DNA of 64,000 bases from a virus (Duplodnaviria; Caudoviricetes): IMG/VR virus record IMGVR_UViG_3300020050_009224, positions 1 to 64,000 of that record; one strand, 5' to 3'. Position numbers and translations under genes: made by a program. The notes below the pieces were generated by a model. That model was not told the origin of the DNA and did not search any database. It saw only the letters and a list, made by a program, of their open reading frames with translations. Numbering within the stretch: position 1 is the first letter of the stretch; each line of letters begins with the position of its first letter. Of this stretch, positions 3,001 to 53,839 are shown piece after piece.

Positions 3001-5046
3001 CTCTGTAATATTTTTAGTGAGCTTTGTATTAAGATCAGTAATTCTTTTTTCAGCCTTATGCTGACTAAACATTAAACTTACTAAATCTAATTGAGCATTG
3101 TTATTAAGTTTGCCACCAGTTATTTTATTAACCTTGTCATAATACTCTGCTGCTTTATCTATATCTTTTAAAAGAGAATCAATTTTCTCTTTATGCTCAT
3201 TAACTAATTGCTCAGGAGACTTAGCTTCACTAGTATCTATTTTATCAGATTTACCTGTACTAAGATCTGTAATATGAAGAGCATGGGCTTCTTTAATTTG
3301 CTCAGCAGACATTGAAGAACTACTTTCCATAAATTCTTTAAAGTCTTCTAATCTGCCAGTTTTAATAAATCCAAAAGCCAAATTAGCTAAGTCCTGACTT
3401 TCTTTGTTTTTAAACTCATAAAAATTACCAGTAGCAATGTCCTTAGCCATATCTGTTTGCAAGGACATACTTCTAACAATAGTTTCTCTTAGAATTTTAA
3501 TTTGTTCAGAGTCTTGATCTTCTACAGGCTTACCCATAGCAGCTCTAAGGCTCTCCATATCTTTACCTATCCTCTCATTTAAAGCTTTTCTGCTTTTAAT
3601 AGCTGTGTCTTTAAGATCATTTAATTCACTAGCCATACCCTGATTTCTGGCAGCTTCTATCTTCTGTTCAGATATATTCTTAGCTATGTTGGAACCTGGA
3701 ATAAGAGTTTTAAGACCTTTAACTTCTTGACCCTTAGAGTTTTTATATGAACTACCTGCTGGCATCATACCTCCAATTAAAGCTCCACTAACCATATTCT
3801 CCCAACCCTCTTTAGTATTAAGTTGGCCTAGTCCATAAAGGACAGAGTTCATATACTCATTAAAAGAACCTTCTGCTTCTGGATCTTGTGCTCTTTTAGA
3901 CTGATAATGTTTTTCAGTTTCACTTATAGCAAACTGTGAGCCTTCTTCTAAAGCTTCAGTTCCACTTAATTTAGCAATAGCGGTAGGTAATCCTAAAAAT
4001 TTATTATAAGGATCTGCTGCATATTTCTCACCTTCTTTAAATATTTTATAACCTAAGTTAGATTCAGCAAAAGGCTTACTAAATGCTTTACCAAATTGTA
4101 TAGCATTAGACATAGTAAGAATAGCCATATTAGCTCCAAATACTGTATTTTTAGTATTCTGTGTAATATTATCCTGTTCTTCTTTAGTTAAGCCATCCCA
4201 AACTCCTTGAGCTTTGAGATTATCTATAACTTGTTTTTCAGCATCAAAGGCTTCCATTCTAGCTTCACCTATTGACGATAAAGCTGATGTAACACCTTGG
4301 TTAATAGTATTACCCCACTGTCTGACTTTAGCTCCTTTTAAAGCTTTGTCTACGACTTGTTCTACAGTCTGTCCAGCTTTAAGAGCTTCAGATATTTCTA
4401 AACCACTTCTTTTAAGAGTATTTCTTAAGTAAGATTTAGCAACGGCTTTACCTCCAGCCTTTAAGGCAGATCCAAATCCTAGACCTGTAGCTATAGCTCC
4501 TACTGCATATCCAGCATTAGAGAAAATTGTATCTCCCCAAAAATTACCTATACCTTCTGCACTAAAAGCATTACTAAGTACAGAGCCTTCTTCATAAGCT
4601 TTAGTTCTATAAACTTCTAAACCTTGCCTAGTTTCATCAGCCCATTCTTGAACAGCTCTGGAAAATGGATTATCTATAAACTCTTCTAGATTTCCTTCAA
4701 ATCCAGTTTTTTCTCCACCCATATTTGCAAGACCAGTAAATAGTCCTATAGTTCCATCTAAAGCTGTAGAAGTGGCATTAACTGCAAATTTACCAAAGGA
4801 TCTTCCTAACTTTTCACCAGTGCCTTGGTTAAGGGCTCTAATTTCATTAAAATCAGAATTTAAAGGAGTTGAAGTAGGTGAGTCTATATAATCTTTATAG
4901 TCATCTACAAAACCTGGAAATCTTTTATACACAGGTTCAAAGTAACCTTGGCCAGATTCATTAAAATTCTGTCTTAATGGTTCTAAGGGAGATAATCCAT
5001 CTAACTGTGAAGTTGAAGCTACAAACTTACCGTTTACTCTAGGCAT
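1..5046 (-). CDS. Giant virion cargo/ejection protein (crAss-like), partial; runs off the left edge; last ~35 codons suspect (see junction finding)
   Basis: ATG at 5046 (MPRVNGKFVASTSQLDGLSPLEP...). Absence from the ORF track is consistent with no in-frame stop before base 1. N-terminal Gly/Ala-rich hydrophobic segments (NFWGDTIFSNAGYAVGAIATGLGFG...TEALEEGSQ) resemble crAss-like cargo proteins. Follows two other cargo genes; TATATTTG box ~26 nt upstream. Confidence 0.8.
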   Translation of the reverse strand, partial: MPRVNGKFVASTSQLDGLSPLEPLRQNFNESGQGYFEPVYKRFPGFVDDYKDYIDSPTSTPLNSDFNEIRALNQGTGEKLGRSFGKFAVNATSTALDGTIGLFTGLANMGGEKTGFEGNLEEFIDNPFSRAVQEWADETRQGLEVYRTKAYEEGSVLSNAFSAEGIGNFWGDTIFSNAGYAVGAIATGLGFGSALKAGGKAVAKSYLRNTLKRSGLEISEALKAGQTVEQVVDKALKGAKVRQWGNTINQGVTSALSSIGEARMEAFDAEKQVIDNLKAQGVWDGLTKEEQDNITQNTKNTVFGANMAILTMSNAIQFGKAFSKPFAESNLGYKIFKEGEKYAADPYNKFLGLPTAIAKLSGTEALEEGSQFAISETEKHYQSKRAQDPEAEGSFNEYMNSVLYGLGQLNTKEGWENMVSGALIGGMMPAGSSYKNSKGQEVKGLKTLIPGSNIAKNISEQKIEAARNQGMASELNDLKDTAIKSRKALNERIGKDMESLRAAMGKPVEDQDSEQIKILRETIVRSMSLQTDMAKDIATGNFYEFKNKESQDLANLAFGFIKTGRLEDFKEFMESSSSMSAEQIKEAHALHITDLSTGKSDKIDTSEAKSPEQLVNEHKEKIDSLLKDIDKAAEYYDKVNKITGGKLNNNAQLDLVSLMFSQHKAEKRITDLNTKLTKNITESISNKNFGIRVDDTPVKSNKTTLEAALKDKVESIKERLDPEVSLMDAVNDLSSNDPKVRAKAVETLTDILKSKTINDVLELKDGLTTKELLTDITDLAKLNSDRRFLAKAISSAFNDPSKFNQRTLDQEDYSLSKDFETNNFPFIQNYKKERLAIDALEAAAEDIILDNEKQAEINFENPQGPLEEISEEIIAGQIKFDDNFDQTKYKDWTTFIRTTGNQTSVTPNSPEYHWYKWFLPNKNLSEFTFITQSVGTVLPELRDKLGFWIQSLNEGKGGFMTVAEIGDNAALLQEAESNVRVIVFKKNGELVVDPSNNPISTSLSLPEYKYTNPDSPRLGEIRFATSHLEEALIEEGLTPEEAEEVIENTLKRGAEEYGKWLEGVKKNKTQLNINGLNPGARNGNLKMQPVGIVGGVLTEVEYKELEKNSDLLNIFIETYIGEGNAKVVDTVINGTTFKVYAGLPYVIVNGVPTALRKTTLTEKDITRTVELLKFAAKNPDKFKMIEDHIKTYINTFSREGKPSNYRFYLFQTKSGFTVNYGTNKFITSEQLLSGDVQGLKDFLATKEYNIDKKTLNAENSTYTKLDVKNGSLVFDTYTHYKMWIADPNESKFAIRSYPIPMDQSGELDFDRYLNEAPRLNPTLQFIDNKELTFVPVIKEEVIPSVVPSIIPSIVVPEVIEGMAPDVMDALGILPEVKQPKPPLTIYDFVGKEITLKNRTGILGISQGGIVTIETPLTIYEIGNIEDLQIELEIEETEDPIVSDVEYGVEYELYSATPSELLNMKYKIDSISEESVTVNEVPYEIITDQLGNIVALQSYENPDQQITNEKLILAVEIARNKLEYKQTETLVEEIDDATVLAVDELNLLNTIYNENLTDEISSLIDFLYSELPLDEFQKYKLELWLFNSLDKVDNLLRNDYKDNQIINEAFENLRLMLNMLYLNNPKIEKIKKETKKNEKSNKKTTVKLPFLVYSFYSFFKIFFRFFSRSNLSFFFSFSSSFLF

Positions 5047-39383: not shown

Positions 39384-39396
39384 ATTTTAATTTTAG

Positions 39397-39470
<74 letters not shown>

Positions 39471-45093: not shown

Positions 45094-45122
45094 TCTATGT
45101 TAAGATTTACTTAGTACTAACT

Positions 45123-45225
45123 GACTGTAACTAAAGAGAGGGTTGCCGCCACCATCTCACTTTAAGCTAGAAAGAGAGATATAGGATAGTAATCAAATAC
45201 TGTCCTATTCTCTTTAGTTATAGTC
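45123..45225 (+). ncRNA. Four-way-junction structured RNA
   Basis: 17-bp closing stem with one G.U pair, enclosing three hairpins. Confidence 0.6.
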
Positions 45226-45357
45226 TTTTAAGTTTATAATTGTTTAAACTGTTTAATTATTCAATTGATAAATTGATAAATTGTTATATTGTTAAATGAT
45301 TATAACTCTTATCAACTCTAATCAACATTTCAACAACTAAACTAATCACCAAAAATC

Positions 45358-45552
45358 ATGAAAACAGCTTACATATGCTTAATATGGTTACTCATAGTAA
45401 TACTATCACTTTCAATCCAGCCTATGATAAATGCTGGATTGCATCCTAATCTTACATTCTTATATGTATTAATTGGGCTTTGTTCTTTACTTGCTTGTCT
45501 TATTACTTGGATATTTATATCTACTGATAGTAAGGTAAATTCAAAAACTTAA
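45358..45552 (+). CDS. Small two-TM membrane protein
   Basis: 64 aa, hydrophobic. Confidence 0.55.
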   Translation: MKTAYICLIWLLIVILSLSIQPMINAGLHPNLTFLYVLIGLCSLLACLITWIFISTDSKVNSKT

Positions 45553-45706
45553 CTCTTTCCAAGATGTTGAGGACACCAGTTTCTTTGATTAAGGACACAG
45601 TATCTCATTATGTTAAAAAACAGATGATACGGCTGCATAAGACTTATTTGCTCTAACGAGAATACATTTAAGTAATAATTAATCAAAGTTTTAGGTGTAA
45701 AACACA
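45548..45706 (+). ncRNA. Repeated structured RNA motif A, copy 1
   Basis: CTTAACTCTTTCCAAGATGTTGAGGACACCAGTTTCTTTG-[variable]-CAAAGTTTTAGGTGTAAAACACA. Confidence 0.75.
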
Positions 45707-46014
45707 GTTGCAAAATTAAACTAATGCAACAAATAGTAGGTACTTGTCCTACAAATCATTTAGCTGTAGGCATATAGCTATCTAAAATAACATCAGTAAT
45801 TACTTCTACTGTTGTTAGATTATTATTCAAGACTATAAGCATCAATTAAGGTGTGTGATAGTGATTGTCTTATTATTATGTAACAAAAATTAATTGCTGA
45901 AGGATTAACTCAAAATGTAGTAAATATGAGTTAGTAGATAGGCGTTTGTTATCCTTGCATTGGGAAACATCCTATAAAAATTGCCGTTATTCTTATACCG
46001 TTATTATAAGAACT

Positions 46015-46146
46015 TAAACAACAACACAGAATGTACAGATTAGAACTCTCAATTCTAATTAACTGAAAACACCTTGAGAAAGTGTGAATAGGTTCTACAA
46101 TTAATTAAGGCTTATAACCATTAATTGTAGTATGTGTTGTTGTTTA
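46015..46146 (+). ncRNA. Multi-stem RNA with kissing loops
   Basis: 14-bp perfect closing stem; loops CUCUCAA and CUUGAGAAA share 6-bp complementarity. Confidence 0.6.
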
Positions 46147-46219
46147 TTTTACTAATGCAGCTATTGTAGTAATACAATAAGAGTCCAAAGCCTCTATAAA
46201 TGCAGATGGGTAAAATAGA
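46143..46219 (+). ncRNA. Twister ribozyme (P1 type)
   Basis: P1 UAUUUUAC/GUAAAAUA; UAA; P2 UGCA/UGCA; GC; P3 AUUGUA-GUAA-UACAAU; P4 AGAG-UCCAAAGC-CUCU; AUAAA; GAUGG. Pseudoknots T1 (CCA/UGG) and T2 (GC/GC) are intact. Confidence 0.9.
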
Positions 46220-46289
46220 GTAAACTATTCAAATCAGGTGTTCAACACTACCTATAATAAAGTGTGTTGTAAAACAAAAATTTAAAACA

Positions 46290-46472
46290 ATGTCAGAAAA
46301 AGAGTTTGACTTTCATGTAGATAATAAAATTAGTCAATTAATGAAAGCAGTAGCAGATTATCAAAATAATCCTGATAAAGCTAAAGATTATATTTTTACC
46401 ACAGTAAAAAACATAGTTAAATCTTCAAAGGAATTTGGTAAAATGACTGTTGCAGAAGAATTATTTGGTTAG
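46290..46472 (+). CDS. Hypothetical protein
   Basis: 60 aa, A-rich leader. Confidence 0.55.
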   Translation: MSEKEFDFHVDNKISQLMKAVADYQNNPDKAKDYIFTTVKNIVKSSKEFGKMTVAEELFG

Positions 46473-46558
46473 TTTATTAGTTGTAGGTAATCTATAAACC
46501 TTCATTTTTTTCATTCACTTAACAACCACTGGCAAGTTGTAATAATATGTAAAATAAA

Positions 46559-46798
46559 ATGGAACAAGAAATTACATTTGAATCACACCCTATTTCTTTT
46601 ATTCAACAACTTGAACAAGAAATAGAAGATAACCACCCTTCAAGATTAACATCAGAAGATATTGAAGATGTATCTGATAATTATCAAGCACATTTAGAAT
46701 ATAAATGGTGGAAAGATGAACAATCTGAATTAATTAAAGATTTAAAATCTCAGCTTACAAAAGAGCAATTAGAACTTTATAATCAACTTAATTCATAA
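46559..46798 (+). CDS. Hypothetical acidic protein
   Basis: 79 aa, A-rich leader. Confidence 0.6.
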   Translation: MEQEITFESHPISFIQQLEQEIEDNHPSRLTSEDIEDVSDNYQAHLEYKWWKDEQSELIKDLKSQLTKEQLELYNQLNS

Positions 46799-46847
46799 AA
46801 CATTTGAGTTTAGGGGAGATTGTATCAAACCTGAACTTATTAAAAAA

Positions 46848-46987
46848 CTTAAATAACTTTCCAAGTTGTTGAGGACACTAAGTTTCTTTGATAATAAGTG
46901 TGAAGAATCACTTTCAGGATTAAGCAGACCCAACTTTATAGTTAGCGGAGCTAAATGTATTTATCAAAGTTTTTAGTGTAAAACACA
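46848..46987 (+). ncRNA. Structured RNA motif A, copy 2
   Basis: Same ends as copy 1 with compensatory changes (AACUU-UCC-AAGUU; ACACUA/UAGUGU). Confidence 0.75.
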
Positions 46988-47524
46988 GATTCTGTATATA
47001 TCTGTTTTTTATCAAAGAAAAGAAAACTCTTTTAGAAACAAATTAGTCTCAACACAATGAGAGCCTTAAACAAACACTTGACTCTTCAGGTGATTATGAA
47101 GGTAAGTAGGGTTATTTGTTTATCCTACTAAATTTAAAGACTGGTAAACCAGCAGAATGTGGATGTTTCTGTATTATAACTCCACCTAATTGAGTTTTCT
47201 TTTTCTTCTTTCTAAACACAAACCAATAAACAAACTAAAGCTATGTACACAGGACACAAACTTACTCTTATCAACATACAATGTAGATGTAAGAGGATTA
47301 CACAATTTGTACAATTACCTACATATAATGGTAAAGCTGTACTTCATCAATCAACAAAAGAAAAAAGTAAGACAAAAAAGAATTCCTTTGTCCTGGTGGC
47401 TACTACCTTTAGAGTAGTATAAGTAGCTACTAGTATAAATACTGCTAAGTTACTACATTTTTTCCACATATTTGTCATAATACTATCATTTATTTTACAC
47501 CTGTTTAACCAAATAACTAAACTA

Positions 47525-47680
47525 ATGGCTAAATTTTTAATTTTTGTACTTCTTATCTGTTTTATTACCTCAAGTTGTTCCACATCTAAAGGTTATAACT
47601 ATAAAGCCCATCATGCTAAATCTATAAAATATAAACATAACAATGAGCATGGTAAATATATGAAATGTAAAAAACACTAA
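47525..47680 (+). CDS. Small lipoprotein (51 aa, not in ORF track)
   Basis: MAKFLIFVLLICFITSS-C lipobox; His/Lys-rich mature part. Confidence 0.55.
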   Translation: MAKFLIFVLLICFITSSCSTSKGYNYKAHHAKSIKYKHNNEHGKYMKCKKH

Positions 47681-47820
47681 AATCCCAAAACTTATGTACC
47701 AATATCTTACCACATTTGACTATGAATCAGAAGCTGAAAGAATGGACAATTCCATTTTATCTCTTAGTTCTTTAAGAACAATTGTAAATTCATTTATAAT
47801 GCCTTAAATACTCTAAAAAG

Positions 47821-48006
47821 ATGAATGAAATATCTTATTCTAAAGATTCTAAAGCTGAAAAAATGCTTAAAAAAGCAATGAAAGTAGTAGATGATTATCT
47901 AAATGCTGGATTTAAAGAAGAACGAACATTAGCTCATAACAAAGCTAAAAAACTTTATAAGGAATATTATGGAGTTGAATACAAGAATAGAGAAGAAAGG
48001 AGGTAA
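47821..48006 (+). CDS. Hypothetical protein
   Basis: 61-aa ORF. Confidence 0.55.
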   Translation: MNEISYSKDSKAEKMLKKAMKVVDDYLNAGFKEERTLAHNKAKKLYKEYYGVEYKNREERR

Positions 48007-48089
48007 ACATGCCTAAATACGACTATTCAGTTCAAGTATTAGAATCTATATATGATTATGTAGATTCATTCTTTGATTAATAAAAAAAA

Positions 48090-48191
48090 CTTAACTCTTT
48101 CCAAGATGTTGAGGACACCTAGTTCTTTGTAGCAACGCTCATGCTGTAAGTACATTAGTACTAAGTGAACAAAGTTTTGGTGTAAAACACA
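48090..48191 (+). ncRNA. Structured RNA motif A, copy 3
   Basis: Same conserved ends; shortest variable insert. Confidence 0.75.
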
Positions 48192-48421
48192 AAAAAAAGA
48201 ATAATGTACTAGAGATTCTTTCAAATTATCATCTAGGAGAATAAGTCTTTAAGGATTGTAATAATCTCAATAAAAATCAATTCTTTAACAAAAAAAGCCA
48301 GCTATGAGTGAGATCATAGTAATTTGATAGAACAGTAGAGACTTACGAAAAACGCAAGGAGGCTGTTCATTTTGCTATTCATAACCAATTCAATAACTAA
48401 AGCTGCTCACATATCAGTTAT

Positions 48422-48664
48422 ATGTGCAAAAACATGTCTTATACAACACCTTCTCCAAATCCAGAATCAAGAATTACTGTATTTGATTTTTATACAGATA
48501 ATTTTACAACACTAGATGCAGATTGCACTAAAGCTGTAGGTTATCAAGTTAAACCAAATGATATTTGGTCAATAAATATAAGAGAACATGAACTCAGAAG
48601 ATTACATGTAACCTTGACTATTATTTATTGGAGTCTTGAATCAGTTGCAAAAAGAAATTCATAA
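48422..48664 (+). CDS. Hypothetical protein
   Basis: 80-aa ORF (second Met may be the true start). Confidence 0.5.
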   Translation: MCKNMSYTTPSPNPESRITVFDFYTDNFTTLDADCTKAVGYQVKPNDIWSINIREHELRRLHVTLTIIYWSLESVAKRNS

Positions 48665-48700
48665 ACTTTGGTTAGCCTGCGATAACATCAACGGCTAACT

Positions 48701-49100
48701 ATTTTAACTTAAAAGTGCAGTATTTGATAGGCATATCGTAATACGAAATTGACTGAACAATACCTTTCTACAGAATAGGGTATAAAGTATAATTAAGCTG
48801 TGATGGCTATTATTCCTTAAATGAGGATATAGTACTCTGTGAAGAGTTAATTAATTGAACTGAAAAAACACAAATTATACATATTGTGTGATTTTACATG
48901 GACCATAAGGTGTGATAATAACGCCTGATCCTAAATATTATGTTGAGCTTAAAAAGAAGCTCAATTAGAATGTAGTAGTAATACTATGACTAAGCTCCTC
49001 AAGCCAATATTATGTGTAATCTTATCAAAGGTAGGAATACCAATAACAGTTCATAGAGGTAATGTATAATCCTCTATTTCAAGCACTTTTAATTTAAAAT
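48701..49100 (+). ncRNA. Large (~400 nt) ornate RNA candidate
   Basis: 17/18-bp closing stem, many internal hairpins, long-range pairings, no listed ORF. Confidence 0.6.
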
Positions 49101-49131
49101 AAAAACACAATAACTCTAAATAATAAAACCA

Positions 49132-49341
49132 ATGAAAGTATTTCAGTATTTCTTCATGCTATTTACAGCAGCCCTAATTTGCTTATTAACTCATTGTATT
49201 GGATATGGATTTTTAAGCAATAAAGTCTTAAATTACAATGATATCTCATTTATGGGATGGATTGGAACAATAATCTGGTATGGATTTATATTTTCTGCTG
49301 CACATGTAATGTATATGCAATACCTTGAAGAAAATAAATAA
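49132..49341 (+). CDS. Small two-TM membrane protein
   Basis: 69 aa, hydrophobic. Confidence 0.55.
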   Translation: MKVFQYFFMLFTAALICLLTHCIGYGFLSNKVLNYNDISFMGWIGTIIWYGFIFSAAHVMYMQYLEENK

Positions 49342-49520
49342 TTTTTAACGTGCTTTTTCGACACCGAAATGGTGTAAAGTAACCCAATATCTGATTATAA
49401 CTTATAATATGAGTTTAAGAAACTTTGTACCAGTAATAGCTGGAGTAATACAATATGTATTCGTAAGTCTTAGCAGTGAGGGTTATTTTTAATTCACTAA
49501 AACTATAAAACTATGAAACT

Positions 49521-49670
49521 ATGAAAATACCAACTTATGGATATTTATGCACATGTAGTAATTGTGGATGTGCATTAACAGCTAAAGTTACAATTAATCT
49601 ATATCTTGGTTCAGGTTACTATTGTAGTAATTGTAAATCAAATGTAGATAAAGAATTATATGGTAAATAA
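49521..49670 (+). CDS. Small zinc-ribbon protein (49 aa, not in ORF track)
   Basis: CSNC...CSNC. Confidence 0.55.
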   Translation: MKIPTYGYLCTCSNCGCALTAKVTINLYLGSGYYCSNCKSNVDKELYGK

Positions 49671-50118
49671 CAGATCCTTCGTACATAAAGTATTCACTAT
49701 TTTTCCCAATAGATGCGCAAATGGGTTTTTAGTGTTTAGTGAGTATATATTAATAGTAGAATGTCATCACCCTCTGTAGTGGAGGAAGAATTCAAGCTTA
49801 TTATTAGTAAGAGTCTCACACTGTTGGATCTTAAAAATGATTAATTATCAATTACCGAAAGTGGGGATTAAAATACACGGGTAATTAGTCATTTTCATTA
49901 TTCTTATTATAAGGAGAGTATTCGTAAATGATGCTTTCGTGTCTGTATTGGGGAAGCTGTGTGAAGATGCACAGCTCTCCTTATAATATGAATTATTATT
50001 CTACAAATAAAGAGATTTAATCTCATACTAAATAGTTAGAGATTTAGCTAGTATTGTTAGTTACTCGAATAATTAAATGTAATTCGAGCATTTACTAGCT
50101 AATCTCTTTATTTATAGA

Positions 50119-50204
50119 TATTTCCTCCTATGGATAGCCCAGCATAGGCTCTCCTATATTCATACTTTATAGTATTAGTATAGGGGAGAGAAGGAATACT
50201 GGGC
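50119..50204 (+). ncRNA. Three-way junction with loop-to-3'-tail pseudoknot
   Basis: Stems UUCCU/AGGAA, CCUAUG/CAUAGG and CUCUCCUAUA/UAUAGGGGAG; loop GCCCAG pairs with tail CUGGGC. Confidence 0.6.
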
Positions 50205-50310
50205 CTAATGTACCACAACTCATTTCCCAAGGATGAACAATTGTAATAATGCTAGGAATAGATTAGTATACATAAATACTAAGAGGATTACAATTGAGTA
50301 CAGAGGGTTT
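50201..50310 (+). ncRNA. Variant twister-like ribozyme with P5 insertion
   Basis: UAA-UGUA-CC...UCAU-UUCCCAAGG-AUGA-A-[CAAUUGUAAU...AUUACAAUUG]-AG-UACA-GAGGG; P1 is weak. Confidence 0.55.
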
Positions 50311-50744
50311 AAAACAAAACTGGAGCTTTCTAGCTAATCTTTTGAATGTCTTTGATAGTTTAACTACCTCAAAGTTTTAGCTCTAAACTATTATTAAATC
50401 CTTCTCAACTGAGTAATTGTTTTTATTAAACAAATTGCGTTGACATTCTAAACAGTTTTAAAATTTAATCTAGGAACTGTAAAGGGCAGCTCACCAAAAG
50501 TTTAAAACAAGAAGAGATTTGATTCATCTCCTAGATTATTTAATAACAACTAATACTTAAAAAACATGATGCCAGAACTAACACCTAGCTTTTTAAATCA
50601 CTTAAGGTATTTACCTATAGTGTGGAATGCAACTCCTAAATCTTGTAAAATGGATAAAAGAATAGGATGTAGAATACAACCATTAGACATTGATACATTG
50701 ATTTATGGAGTAGATTCAGTAATCTTTTTAAACTAGTTAAAACT

Positions 50745-51089
50745 ATGATTAAATTTAAAAAAATAATAGCAAAAGAAAACAACTTCATTTATAGATTTAA
50801 TCTTTACCTTAAAAAAGGCTCTATCAAATTACATTTAATATGTAGCGATGATACAAGAGAACCTCATAATCATCCTTGGGATTTTAAGAGCTTAATATTG
50901 TTTGGAGGTTACAAAGAGTTTAATGAAAAAGGAGTACAAACTAATTTTAGATTTTTATCTGTAAATAAAAAAGATACTTCTGTTTTTCATAGATTGGAGT
51001 TGTACAAACTATTGGGTATTAAAATACCTTGTTTAACCATTGGTAGATATTCAGAAAAAAAACAAACTTTTACATTCTTTAAAACTTAA
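50745..51089 (+). CDS. Cupin-like protein
   Basis: LH...SDD.REPHNHPWDF.SLIL.GGY.E...FHRL. Confidence 0.7.
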   Translation: MIKFKKIIAKENNFIYRFNLYLKKGSIKLHLICSDDTREPHNHPWDFKSLILFGGYKEFNEKGVQTNFRFLSVNKKDTSVFHRLELYKLLGIKIPCLTIGRYSEKKQTFTFFKT

Positions 51090-51092
51090 ACT

Positions 51093-51413
51093 ATGGCTGA
51101 AAGAAGAATAAAAAAAGATATTACATATATAGATCCAAGTAAAAAAGGAGCTTTATTATTATCTAAAAACAGAAAAATACAACTAACAAGACTTAAGCCT
51201 AAAAATGCTGATGATGGATTTAATATTCTTATTAGATCAACTTTGGGTGATGTAACAAAACCAGCTGTTGAGCACAAAGTTTTAAAAGGTAAGGTTAGAC
51301 AGTCACAAATTACTATTTCTTCAGAAGCAATGGCAGAAATTGTTAATATGTATCACATACTTACAGAAAAATCTGATTCAATTACATTAACTTGGAAAGA
51401 AAAACAATCTTAA
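51093..51413 (+). CDS. Hypothetical protein
   Basis: 106-aa ORF. Confidence 0.65.
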   Translation: MAERRIKKDITYIDPSKKGALLLSKNRKIQLTRLKPKNADDGFNILIRSTLGDVTKPAVEHKVLKGKVRQSQITISSEAMAEIVNMYHILTEKSDSITLTWKEKQS

Positions 51414-51426
51414 AACAAATAAACAA

Positions 51427-51591
51427 ATGGAAGAATTAATTGAAACTCCTTCAAAGAATAAACTTTTCAAAATTAGAAAAGGATATTCTAAGACAATGCA
51501 CAATCTTATGAAAAAATACAATGTAAAAACTGTAGAAGAGTATCGTAAAATCAGAAAAGCAAACAGAAAAAAATTAAGAAGCGACCTGTAG
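51427..51591 (+). CDS. Small basic protein (54 aa, not in ORF track)
   Basis: MEELIETPSKNKLFKIRKG...; A-rich leader; hairpin at 51625-51648 downstream. Confidence 0.55.
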   Translation: MEELIETPSKNKLFKIRKGYSKTMHNLMKKYNVKTVEEYRKIRKANRKKLRSDL

Positions 51592-51788
51592 TTAGGACAG
51601 GTTTTTGGTTTAGGTTTAGTGACTTAGGGTAGGAAACGTTCTACCCTTTGTTTTAGATTTAAGATATGAATAATTTCATAAATAAAAGAGAGCCAATCTA
51701 ACCACATTTGTAGTGGAGAAAAGGATGAATTTGTAAATGACCAAGTATCTTGAATCTAAAACAATTGTTTAATTAAATCTTTAAAAAC

Positions 51789-51965
51789 ATGAAACTAACA
51801 ATTTTAATCTTATCTGTTATTTGTATTGCAATTTGTATACATGCTAATTATATCCAAACTCAATACAGAAAACAAAATTTACAATTAATCCATGTTGTAA
51901 ATAGACAAAAGAACAAAATTTGGATGTATGAGCATTGTTACACAATAACATGTAAACAAAAATAA
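51789..51965 (+). CDS. Small membrane-anchored protein, paralogue 1 (not in ORF track)
   Basis: MKLTILILSVICIAICIHANY...WMYEHCYTITCKQK, clearly similar to 53208..53396. Confidence 0.75.
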   Translation: MKLTILILSVICIAICIHANYIQTQYRKQNLQLIHVVNRQKNKIWMYEHCYTITCKQK

Positions 51966-52007
51966 CAAGTGACCCAAGAGGATTAATTCCACAATGTAAA
52001 CTTGTTT

Positions 52008-52853
52008 AAAGAATAACTCAATATATGATTATAACTTACTTAATACCAAGAATAATTACTAGATGTTTGGTGTTGTAACACATTAATCTTACACCTATTA
52101 GGTAATTTGCATTGAGAGTTATTCTTTCTTTTATTTAGTATAGAGAAATACTCAAGAACCCTATACTGTCTGTTATTGCAACATCTATAGAATGACTAAG
52201 AAATCTTGTGTCTCTGTACTAAATAAAAGTAATTTAAAAACTTAAAATCACTTGCTTGAAGATAAACAATAACGTATGAATTGGTAGATAGGTAAGGTTC
52301 GATTCCTGTAAATTGTCCCTATTATTGTTATAAACTGTACTAGCAGTTGTGTTTATTGTAAAGATATTATTGAAAAATGAGTTTGCGAGTGTTAATTCAT
52401 GGCGCGATTATTAAAATGATATAGTATTCCACTAGAATTTGGACAAGTGATTTTATTAATGCACCATCTCATGTAGATATAATCGACTTCTTAGTGTCTC
52501 TTAGAGATAAAGAACTTGCTAAGCTGATTGGAGTAATCCATGTAATATTGGAGCTAGTCTAACCTAAAGGGTAGAGAATTGTAAAGCATACTTGAAAATA
52601 CATTGCATTGCATAAAATATGGTTCGAGTCCAGGAGGTCATGTTGTAAACAGCATGGCATCCAATAGGGTAGGTGGGTGCCCAATGTATATAATCTAAGT
52701 AAAGTATGTGGTGGCAGCTAAGTGTTAAACTGTAGGATTAATTACCTATGTATGCGGGAACTTAGCCTCAACAATAGTAATATTGTTGTAGTAGTTGTTA
52801 AGTTGATAAAGGAATAAGTCATGTATGAACTCCTCAAATAACAACATTGTGCA
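52008..52853 (+). ncRNA. Block of four abutting structured RNA domains (52008-52127, 52128-52229, 52243-52455, 52460-52853)
   Basis: Each has its own closing stem (12, 19, 12 and 5 bp); two tRNA-type T-loop hairpins at 52295-52307 and 52620-52632; no listed ORFs. Confidence 0.6.
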
Positions 52854-53207
52854 GACTGGAGTGATTACCAGTAACAAAAAATTAAAAATTATGAATTGGA
52901 ATAGTGATTGGACTAAAAATTTTCCTGTAACTTTAGGGATAGGAATTAGTTTAGGAATATTAATTGGAGTATTATTATGTATTAATTTATTTCAATTATA
53001 TTAAAGAACTTTTAGTATATAAGACAGACTTTATACAGATAAAATACAAGTACCTAAAGGTTTAAAGAGGGAACTTATGTTGTTAGACAGTTTAAAAACA
53101 GAATGTGACAGTATTGAAAAAACTGGAAGGATGTCACAATAACAAAGTGATTAAGGTTGAACACGCTTGTATTTTTATTAAATATTAACTTTAAAAACAA
53201 AAAAAAC

Positions 53208-53396
53208 ATGAAACTAACAATTTTAATCTTATCAATTATTTGTATTGCAGTTTGTGTACATGCTAATTATGTGCAAGAAAGATACAAAAAACAAAATCTT
53301 GCTCTTATCTATGCTTTTAATCGTCAAAGAAATAAAGTATGGATGTATGAACACTGTTACAAGATTACTTGTAAAGATAATGTAAAAACTAACTAA
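53208..53396 (+). CDS. Small membrane-anchored protein, paralogue 2
   Basis: ATG 53208 inferred from alignment with paralogue 1. Confidence 0.75.
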   Translation: MKLTILILSIICIAVCVHANYVQERYKKQNLALIYAFNRQRNKVWMYEHCYKITCKDNVKTN

Positions 53397-53398
53397 GT

Positions 53399-53659
53399 AT
53401 GTATTTCTACTTATTTCTAACCTTAGTTATGATAATATGGAATATTTATCAAGTTAATCCTTGTTTATTTTCATTACATGCTAAATATCTATATTTCTTT
53501 AATGGTAAACACAATATCTATAAATGCCATCTGTGTACTAATTATAAAAGTACTAGGACACCAAAAACAATGTATGGTAATTTAAAGGTAAATCAAAAAT
53601 ATCATAAAACTTTGGTAACACAGAGTTTTAAATTCATAAAATCTACTTATCTTTTTTAA
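53399..53659 (+). CDS. Hypothetical protein
   Basis: 86 aa; C...H...CxxC pattern. Confidence 0.45.
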   Translation: MYFYLFLTLVMIIWNIYQVNPCLFSLHAKYLYFFNGKHNIYKCHLCTNYKSTRTPKTMYGNLKVNQKYHKTLVTQSFKFIKSTYLF

Positions 53660-53839
53660 ACCATTCCTTTGTATAGTTGTAATAACAGTGACGGTGCTGG
53701 AATAAATATTAGCTGACCTTAATTTAAAGACCAGTAATGGTGTGCCATAAGAGAAATCTCACTAATCAAAGGAATCACCGATGTATATATGGTATTGGGA
53801 CTAACTATAAACTATGTAAATACCTGTGATTTATAATAG

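Follow-up and report, generated by a model that had tools for sequence, protein, structure and literature searches.

A widespread RNA element of crAss-like phages with a pseudoknotted, twister-like core

Twister ribozymes cleave at a U-A step in an active site formed by the T1 pseudoknot and the junction of stems P1 and P2 (PMC5408937). P2 has exactly four base pairs and T1 three plus an A-A pair, a sheared A-G pair lies between T1 and P2, and, in loop L4, the T1 strand has a U-A pair at its flank; P4 is one of three essential stems and T2 is the most critical tertiary contact (PMC5408937). The family is Rfam clan CL00120, where types P3 and P5 are circular permutations; the type-P1 consensus (RF03160) served as our reference. 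Here we describe an RNA element that occurs three times on the plus strand of a 64,000-nucleotide (nt) stretch of viral DNA (the window; positions 1 to 64,000 of IMG/VR record IMGVR_UViG_3300020050_009224, Duplodnaviria, Caudoviricetes). It is a widespread, unannotated phage RNA, found on several hundred viral and metagenome contigs. Read from the sequence, its core matches the twister active-site architecture element by element and is almost identical to it. On balance we favour the view that it is a self-cleaving twister variant without P4 and T2, cut at GGUGU^AAAAC. We do not file it as a twister; by analogy, it is probably a P4-less variant that works like one, either derived from twister or convergent on it.

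There are partial precedents for such an arrangement. An engineered mini-twister without P1 keeps near wild-type activity (PMC5408937), so that a conserved stem is removable from a twister, although this artificial construct loses P1, not P4 and T2, and represents no natural family. Non-circularly permuted hammerheads (type-SGC and others), validated by cleavage assays (PMC10085705), provide a precedent for families with a retained catalytic core and rewired connectivity that standard models miss, but they belong to another ribozyme class. HDV-like ribozymes (HDV, hepatitis delta virus), including the phage ‘theta’ ribozymes (PMC10879173), share with the element helices that cross at the 5′ and 3′ ends, a variable hairpin at the periphery and an occurrence in gut phages. 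They differ in that the loop-bearing segment of the element lies between the 5′ strands of its first and second helices, and its cut is predicted near the 3′ end rather than the 5′ end. An HDV-like assignment (P1, P2, P3/L3, P1′, P1.1, P4, P2′, with a 5′ cut) was rejected on strand order and had no Rfam match; hatchet, pistol, twister-sister, hammerhead and hairpin ribozymes were likewise rejected, with no match at E ≤ 10 on the copies.

A first-pass annotation of this DNA had pointed to three copies of an RNA motif with shared blocks around unrelated inserts, and this description stands. A common 19-mer occurs on the plus strand at 45558, 46860 and 48100, against 0.01 matches expected by chance. 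A covariance model trained on the copies of other phages only gave exactly three matches in the window (67–69 bits, E ~1e-16), the next best scoring 14 bits, and a search with the model found no fourth copy in the whole 98,184-bp genome. The Rfam scan that the annotation had proposed returned no characterised family at the copies, either at the gathering score or at E ≤ 10 (window, related loci and minimal copy); between 40 and 54 kb of the window it gave nothing convincing beyond one twister.

Scan patterns fixed on one side only, with the other side left free, exposed three long-range pairings. We number the fold by a minimal copy, in which nt 1 is the first A of the leader, and denote retrieved related loci by L-numbers (L005, L070, L102 and so on). 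In T1, the triplet at nt 18–20 covaries with nt 31–33, the triplet directly before CACC, in nine combinations (UCC/GGA, CCC/GGG, UGC/GCA, UGC/GCG, UCU/AGA, CCA/UGG, UUC/GAA, CAC/GUG and CUC/GAG), with changes on both sides at all three pairs. In P2, nt 25–28, following AAG-N, covary with nt 70–73 of the tail: UGUU/AACA was counted 109 times, CAUU/AAUG 76 times, UAUU/AAUA three times and CGUU/AACG once, besides wobble intermediates. When only the 5′ side was used for scanning, all true CAUU copies with an identified tail (76) had AAUG. P2 is exactly four pairs long, and the flanking positions are unable to lengthen it. A further helix, helix a, joins the 5′ leader AAACU to the AGUUU directly after CACC; all five of its pairs have changed on both sides, with replacements that include AACC/GGUU, AGCC/GGCU, AGGU/ACCU, AACUAA/UUAGUU and AAACUC/GAGUUU. 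P1 (CACC/GGUG) shows A-U, G-U and G-C at one pair and C-G, U-A, A-U and G-C at another, so that the exchange of ACACC/GGUGU for ACACU/AGUGU, noticed among the window copies at the outset, is genuinely compensatory. Covariation is seen in the stem that closes the insert as well.

Over 84 distinct sequences, in an alignment chosen in part by a loose complementarity filter, the five-helix model is 94.0% paired versus 85.7% for shuffled sequences; 0 of 500 shuffles reached any of five measures, and slid controls were 27–47% paired. T1, P2 and P1 are paired in 99.2%, 99.7% and 99.7% of cases, respectively. The pairings are strand-specific, include G-U pairs and cross one another: the fold is a stack of interlocked pseudoknots, and it is strongly supported. 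Conservation is complete or exceeds 90% at the nucleotides left unpaired: U, AA(G), (G)A, UAA and C. Among 61 aligned copies whose retrieval made no use of the 3′ side, UAA is invariant in 60–61, and GA is present in 192 of 196 parsed matches, with four matches later discarded as spurious. A mutual-information scan revealed no extra tertiary pairs of the tail with leader or linker, and the segment preceding the T1 strand on its 5′ side has no covarying partner. In two subfamilies the linker between leader and T1 strand contains an additional, optional hairpin (gut loci L251, L252, L157 and others; environmental loci L082, L089, L104, L135 and L138). This hairpin is a second tolerant insertion point, located where the P4/P5 side of twister would be.

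This fold departs from the secondary structure first proposed, of which P1 and the insert-closing stem covary while the two elements taken to be unpaired and invariant turn out to be pseudoknot strands. The UCC triplet is neither unpaired nor invariant, as it covaries with the GGA 11 nt downstream, and the supposedly single-stranded tail supplies AACA, which pairs with UGUU inside the supposed apical hairpin. The two forms of that hairpin (UCUU/AAGA versus AACUU/AAGUU) are complementary yet do not covary: pairing is 86.2% against 86.1% in shuffles, 162 of 500 shuffles reach the observed value, and one position varies freely opposite an invariant partner. An alternative register of the hairpin (AAC with GUU, 6-nt loop) was rejected because it fails to follow the change from UGUU to CAUU. 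The apical hairpin may, speculatively, be a competing or product-state conformer.

Comparison with the type-P1 consensus places each part of the core. In both RNAs one strand runs from the P1 5′ strand through U^A-A and the 4-nt P2 5′ strand to a C. The other strand of twister reads U, CCC-type T1, AAG, P2 3′ strand, GA, GGG-type T1 and P1 3′ strand, and that of the element reads U, YCC, AAG, one nt, P2 3′ strand, GA, GGR and P1 3′ strand. The counterpart of loop L1 consists of GGUG-UAA-AACA opposite UGUU-GA-GGA-CACC, with the U-A step, the conserved A and the GA all in place. The T1 pseudoknot has an invariant U and AA at its flanks, and the four pairs of P2 are Watson-Crick pairs. The 4-bp P2 and 3-bp T1 are common to both families, as is a P1 of any length when capped, known from the permuted types; twisters, too, occur in phage regions alongside other self-cleaving classes. 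The invariant unpaired nucleotides of the element are the positions named as the conserved active-site nucleotides of twister (PMC5408937). The differences lie outside this core. In twister, two loop Cs, the P4 3′ strand and UAAA occupy the place of the single nt that separates AAG from the P2 3′ strand in the element; the T1 strand of the element comes from a single-stranded 5′ segment, not a hairpin loop; an extra leader helix pairs into the P1 internal loop, beside a conserved U-rich strand; and the ends of the element fall where P3/P4 would be. The earlier suggestion of a new self-cleaving class thus holds in part. Action at the RNA level and the ribozyme idea are upheld by strand-specific covariation and ribozyme neighbours, but because the covariation-supported core matches the twister architecture, the element is not an unrelated new class.

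The pairings suggest how such an RNA could work. A single uninterrupted stretch, beginning with the P2 3′ strand and reaching the base of the variable stem, pairs successively with five segments: the tail AACA (P2, 4 bp), YCC (T1, 3 bp), GGUG (P1), the leader AAACU (helix a) and the 3′ half of the variable stem. Together these would gather the U^AA linker between P1 and P2, the GA between P2 and T1, and the U..AAG flanks of T1 into a twister-like active site. In place of P4 and T2, the T1 strand is tethered covalently via AAG-N to the P2 3′ strand, with a second tether provided by the leader helix stacked on P1 beside the conserved U-rich strand. Cleavage is predicted after the U of GGUGU^AAAAC. 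The folded element, variable domain included, would remain at the 3′ terminus of the upstream RNA, which would end in a 2′,3′-cyclic phosphate, and the downstream RNA would be released with a 5′-OH and a short, A-rich, unstructured leader. In relatives this leader would commonly extend 20–40 nt to a start codon; in the window it would run into further non-coding RNA.

Copy 1 spans 45543–45706 on the plus strand, from the leader to the conserved C after P2 (covariance-model match 45541–45710, 68.4 bits). Its helix a leader strand, AAACU at 45545–45549, pairs with 45578–45582. The 5′ core (45557–45582), made up of covariation-supported pairings, begins with the invariant U at 45557, the T1 5′ strand UCC at 45558–60, AAG at 45561–63, A at 45564 and the P2 3′ strand UGUU at 45565–68, and continues with GA at 45569–70, the T1 3′ strand GGA at 45571–73, the P1 3′ strand CACC at 45574–77 and the helix a 3′ strand AGUUU at 45578–82. 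A variable domain, the distal extension of P1, follows at 45583–45688 with a 10-bp closing stem. The 3′ core (45689–45706) comprises the U-rich strand (45689–93), the P1 5′ strand GGUG (45694–97), UAA (45698–45700), the P2 5′ strand AACA (45701–04) and the conserved C (45705). Position-for-position analogy with twister (PMC5408937) puts the predicted scissile U^A bond at 45698/45699.

Copy 2 (46842–46987, plus strand; match 46842–46991, 68.9 bits) has a longer helix a, in which AAACUU at 46845–46850 pairs with AAGUUU at 46880–85; the 6-bp helix goes with an extra A in the partner strand, as it does in L021, L048 and L064. Its 5′ core (46859–46885) consists of U 46859, UCC 46860–62, AAG 46863–65, U 46866, UGUU 46867–70, GA 46871–72, GGA 46873–75, CACU 46876–79 and AAGUUU 46880–85. 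After the variable domain (46886–46969, 9-bp closing stem), the 3′ core (46970–46987) contains the U-rich strand at 46970–74, AGUG at 46975–78, UAA at 46979–81, AACA at 46982–85 and C at 46986. P1 is thus CACU/AGUG, the compensatory change relative to copies 1 and 3, and the same analogy predicts cleavage of the U^A bond at 46979/46980. In copy 3 (48082–48191, plus strand; match 48082–48195, 67.2 bits), the leader strand AACU at 48088–48091 pairs with AGUU at 48121–24. The 5′ core (48099–48124) is formed by U 48099, UCC 48100–02, AAG 48103–05, A 48106, UGUU 48107–10, GA 48111–12, GGA 48113–15, CACC 48116–19, U 48120 and AGUU 48121–24, the variable domain by 48125–48174 with a 6-bp closing stem, and the 3′ core (48175–48191) by UUUU 48175–78, GGUG 48179–82, UAA 48183–85, AACA 48186–89 and C 48190. 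Here the scissile U^A bond would be 48183/48184, again by analogy with twister.

The inserts of the three copies measure 106, 84 and 50 nt including their closing stems. Across all copies, insert length ranges from 10 to 207 nt (median 84) and the sequences fall into ~105 clusters; minimal copies of ~80 nt (L005 and L070) have just a 10–20-nt hairpin in the insert position. The insert of copy 1 recurs with 100% identity in L064 only, and no relatives of the inserts of copies 2 and 3 are present among the retrieved loci. Insert interiors are not consistently more stable than shuffles (fold z −3.1, −1.25 and −0.13 for copies 1, 2 and 3). By comparison with the permuted twisters, in which this end is freely variable, what had been called a swappable insert is the tolerant distal end of P1.

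Proximity to twisters had been offered as a reason to expect a ribozyme. In the window this amounts to just one sub-threshold match to a canonical type-P1 twister, separate from the repeats, at 46149–46213 on the plus strand, 440 nt downstream of copy 1 (RF03160, 57.5 bits versus a gathering score of 67.2, E 5.9e-11, full-length alignment). This twister has a P3 stem and lies ~75 nt upstream of an open reading frame (ORF) at 46290. Self-cleaving RNAs abound in the related loci. In L102, a hatchet at 3088–3239 on the minus strand (81.7 bits, above the gathering score) and a twister-P1 match at 2124–2187 on the minus strand both lie within 1.5 kb upstream of the element. In L127, the element is followed after ~100 nt by a RAGATH-1 hammerhead-like match at 4815–4884 on the plus strand, whose 41.6 bits fall short of the gathering score; L127 also has a tRNA array. 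Hatchets are largely confined to Crassvirales according to a 2026 preprint. Of 188 copies, 9 follow a second conserved RNA, which reads as a canonical type-P1 twister with a long P5 stem and ends 4–8 nt before the leader (L016, L102, L080, L048, L050, L062, L045, L010 and L074); Rfam did not report this RNA at E ≤ 0.01 in L016, L048, L050, L062 and L102, the loci searched.

Each copy had also been described as following a small ORF, which is true only loosely in the window: copy 1 overlaps the stop codon of a 64-amino-acid ORF, copy 2 starts 44 nt past a 79-amino-acid ORF, and copy 3 comes after a 24-codon ORF. What is consistent among relatives is the start of an ORF downstream rather than the presence of one upstream. 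The distance from the predicted cut to the next ATG has its mode at 20–39 nt (61 of 178) and a median of 57 nt. The downstream proteins are mutually unrelated (69 clusters for 86), which fits a generic processing module; such a module, acting on early polycistronic RNA, would be the most economical reading of the element.

The source record is a virus of 98,184 bp with late genes on the minus strand (1–42405) and, from ~43 kb, a gene-poor stretch with small plus-strand ORFs. The crAss-like Cellulophaga phage phi14:2 has distant relatives of both the portal and the large terminase of this virus, the terminase being 30% identical over 96% of its length. The plus strand at 45100–53800 is gene-poor, with long non-coding gaps separating small ORFs, and parallels the early intergenic regions of phi14:2. 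In that phage, long intergenic stretches of the early region are transcribed above most protein-coding genes, and no common motif was found upstream of early transcripts (bioRxiv 10.1101/2020.03.07.982082). The sole tRNA of the window is a tRNA-Met (anticodon CAT) at 39396–39470 on the minus strand.

The exact 19-mer is present in 73 IMG/VR contigs, and scans with a pattern for the 3′ tail, with a variant of the core and with a metagenome pattern each found at least ~114–120 stretches. Carriers include gut phages and environmental relatives. Blastn located the element in 16 phage records, mostly named human-gut crAss-like phages; all five that were inspected are Crassvirales of the family Suoliviridae, each with a full-length copy (72–81 bits) that lies between genes, in DNA bearing no annotation, and shares the strand of the genes on either side. 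Among 185,579 bacterial and archaeal genomes there were 12 matches, all on contigs of metagenome-assembled genomes (MAGs) with inconsistent taxonomy or on a 1-kb stray contig. These 12 matches are phage DNA, and the element is almost absent from cellular genomes. The MAG contigs (L266–L277, up to 186 kb long) are labelled Thauera, Clostridiales, Bacilli, Saccharibacteria, Treponema, Bacteroides, Flavobacterium and others; they are almost certainly mis-binned crAss-like phage contigs, which the element could serve to mark in MAGs. Searches by topic and by sequence strings found no published description of the element, within a coverage that left out most subscription literature, so that a prior description is possible.

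Several observations weigh against self-cleavage by a twister-like mechanism. P4 is absent, with only one nt between AAG and the P2 3′ strand in all copies, and so is the GC/GC T2 pseudoknot: the tail continues with the conserved C only, and the L4-like G is followed by A or U. T2 could be replaced by one G-C pair at most, between the G of AAG and the C after P2, and this pair does not covary. No twister or other Rfam model matched the element at E ≤ 10 in 14 kb around the copies, in five related loci or in a minimal 116-nt stretch, and the same search does recover the canonical twister at 46149–46213. In the nested minimum-energy fold (−18.2 kcal/mol) the P2 and T1 strands are taken up by the competing hairpin, which the active fold must therefore outcompete. 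The window copies lie 238–591 nt from the next ORF of at least 40 amino acids, and a role just upstream of a gene is not evident there. No metagenome contig ends at the predicted cut, the contigs being apparently DNA assemblies. The complementarity filter used in choosing the alignment inflates the percentages paired, though not the compensatory changes, and many of the sequences are related, so that the tallies count non-independent events. Support is good for the fold but not for catalysis, and it is possible, if on the doubtful side, that the element is a non-catalytic twister-like structured RNA, whether a decayed or co-opted ribozyme or a look-alike pseudoknot, acting as a 5′ untranslated region (UTR) or intergenic module such as an exonuclease block, a protein-binding site or a translation or stability element before early genes. 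Compact multi-pseudoknot RNAs can be mechanical blocks, and the frequent 5′ UTR position, together with the missing P4 and T2 and the failure of every twister model, would suit such a role. A purely structural role, however, does not obviously need the very nucleotides that twister uses for chemistry (the U-A step, the next A, GA and AAG) to be unpaired and fixed across gut and environmental phages, and association with several self-cleaving classes is a signal that has found ribozymes before.

Other readings give the insert or the 5′ UTR position the leading part. In one of them the element would be an active, previously undescribed architecture in which the leader pseudoknot replaces P4 and T2 and the insert is cargo, released as stable small RNAs that act on the host. 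Cleavage by the element alone, or with nearby twisters and hatchets, would then yield diversified small RNAs from early crAss-like phage transcripts; bearing 5′-OH and cyclic-phosphate ends, they might be ligatable into circles and could act during host takeover. We regard this as unlikely. Less probable still is the alternative raised in the first-pass annotation, a scaffold whose insert would serve as cargo RNA, be it a guide, a decoy or some other kind, whether or not the element cleaves. In favour of a scaffold are the hypervariability of the inserts, their constant position behind a covarying closing stem and the recurrence of some insert families with different cores. Against it, minimal copies with a 10–20-nt hairpin indicate that the core works without cargo, none of the three inserts has a sense or antisense match of more than 12 nt elsewhere in the window, the ~105 clusters are unrelated, the interiors are not consistently stable, and the insert occupies the freely variable P1 end of permuted twisters. 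A ligand-sensing riboswitch or regulatory aptamer in the 5′ UTR, with the core as binding pocket, would also account for invariant junction nucleotides in a pseudoknotted core upstream of start codons, but we consider it very improbable: the genes downstream are unrelated to one another, which sets them apart from riboswitch regulons, there is no sign of an expression platform, the frequency of terminator-like sites does not exceed that in shuffles, and twister explains the core position by position. Least probable of all is an element acting as DNA, such as a hairpin promoter of the type used by the N4 virion polymerase, an operator, a terminator or a miniature mobile element, which the evidence already disfavours. 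The stem with a 3-nt loop is reminiscent of N4 early promoters, and the copies are repeated, carry inverted repeats and belong to the early region of a phage that has a virion RNA polymerase. The hairpin nevertheless lacks covariation, its loop triplet covaries with a downstream triplet instead, and the pairings are long-range, crossing and strand-specific, with G-U pairs (CGCC/GGUG, UGUU/AAUG) whose counterparts on the opposite strand would be C-A mismatches. There is no enrichment of promoter-like or terminator-like sites, and early transcripts of phi14:2 have no common upstream motif (bioRxiv 10.1101/2020.03.07.982082).

Even if it does not cleave, the element is a widely conserved multi-pseudoknot RNA. 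If it does, the minimal natural twister would be redefined, with an ‘essential’ stem and pseudoknot replaceable by a different tether; this would be relevant to the assembly of the active site and to designing compact ribozymes and aptazymes whose insertion site is naturally tolerant, and a family several hundred strong, overlooked by present models, would be added. Crassvirales are the most abundant phages of the human gut. In their unannotated, gene-poor early regions, and in those of their freshwater and marine relatives, the element would mark sites of RNA processing, giving a handle on transcript boundaries and early gene expression of these phages in their Bacteroidota hosts.

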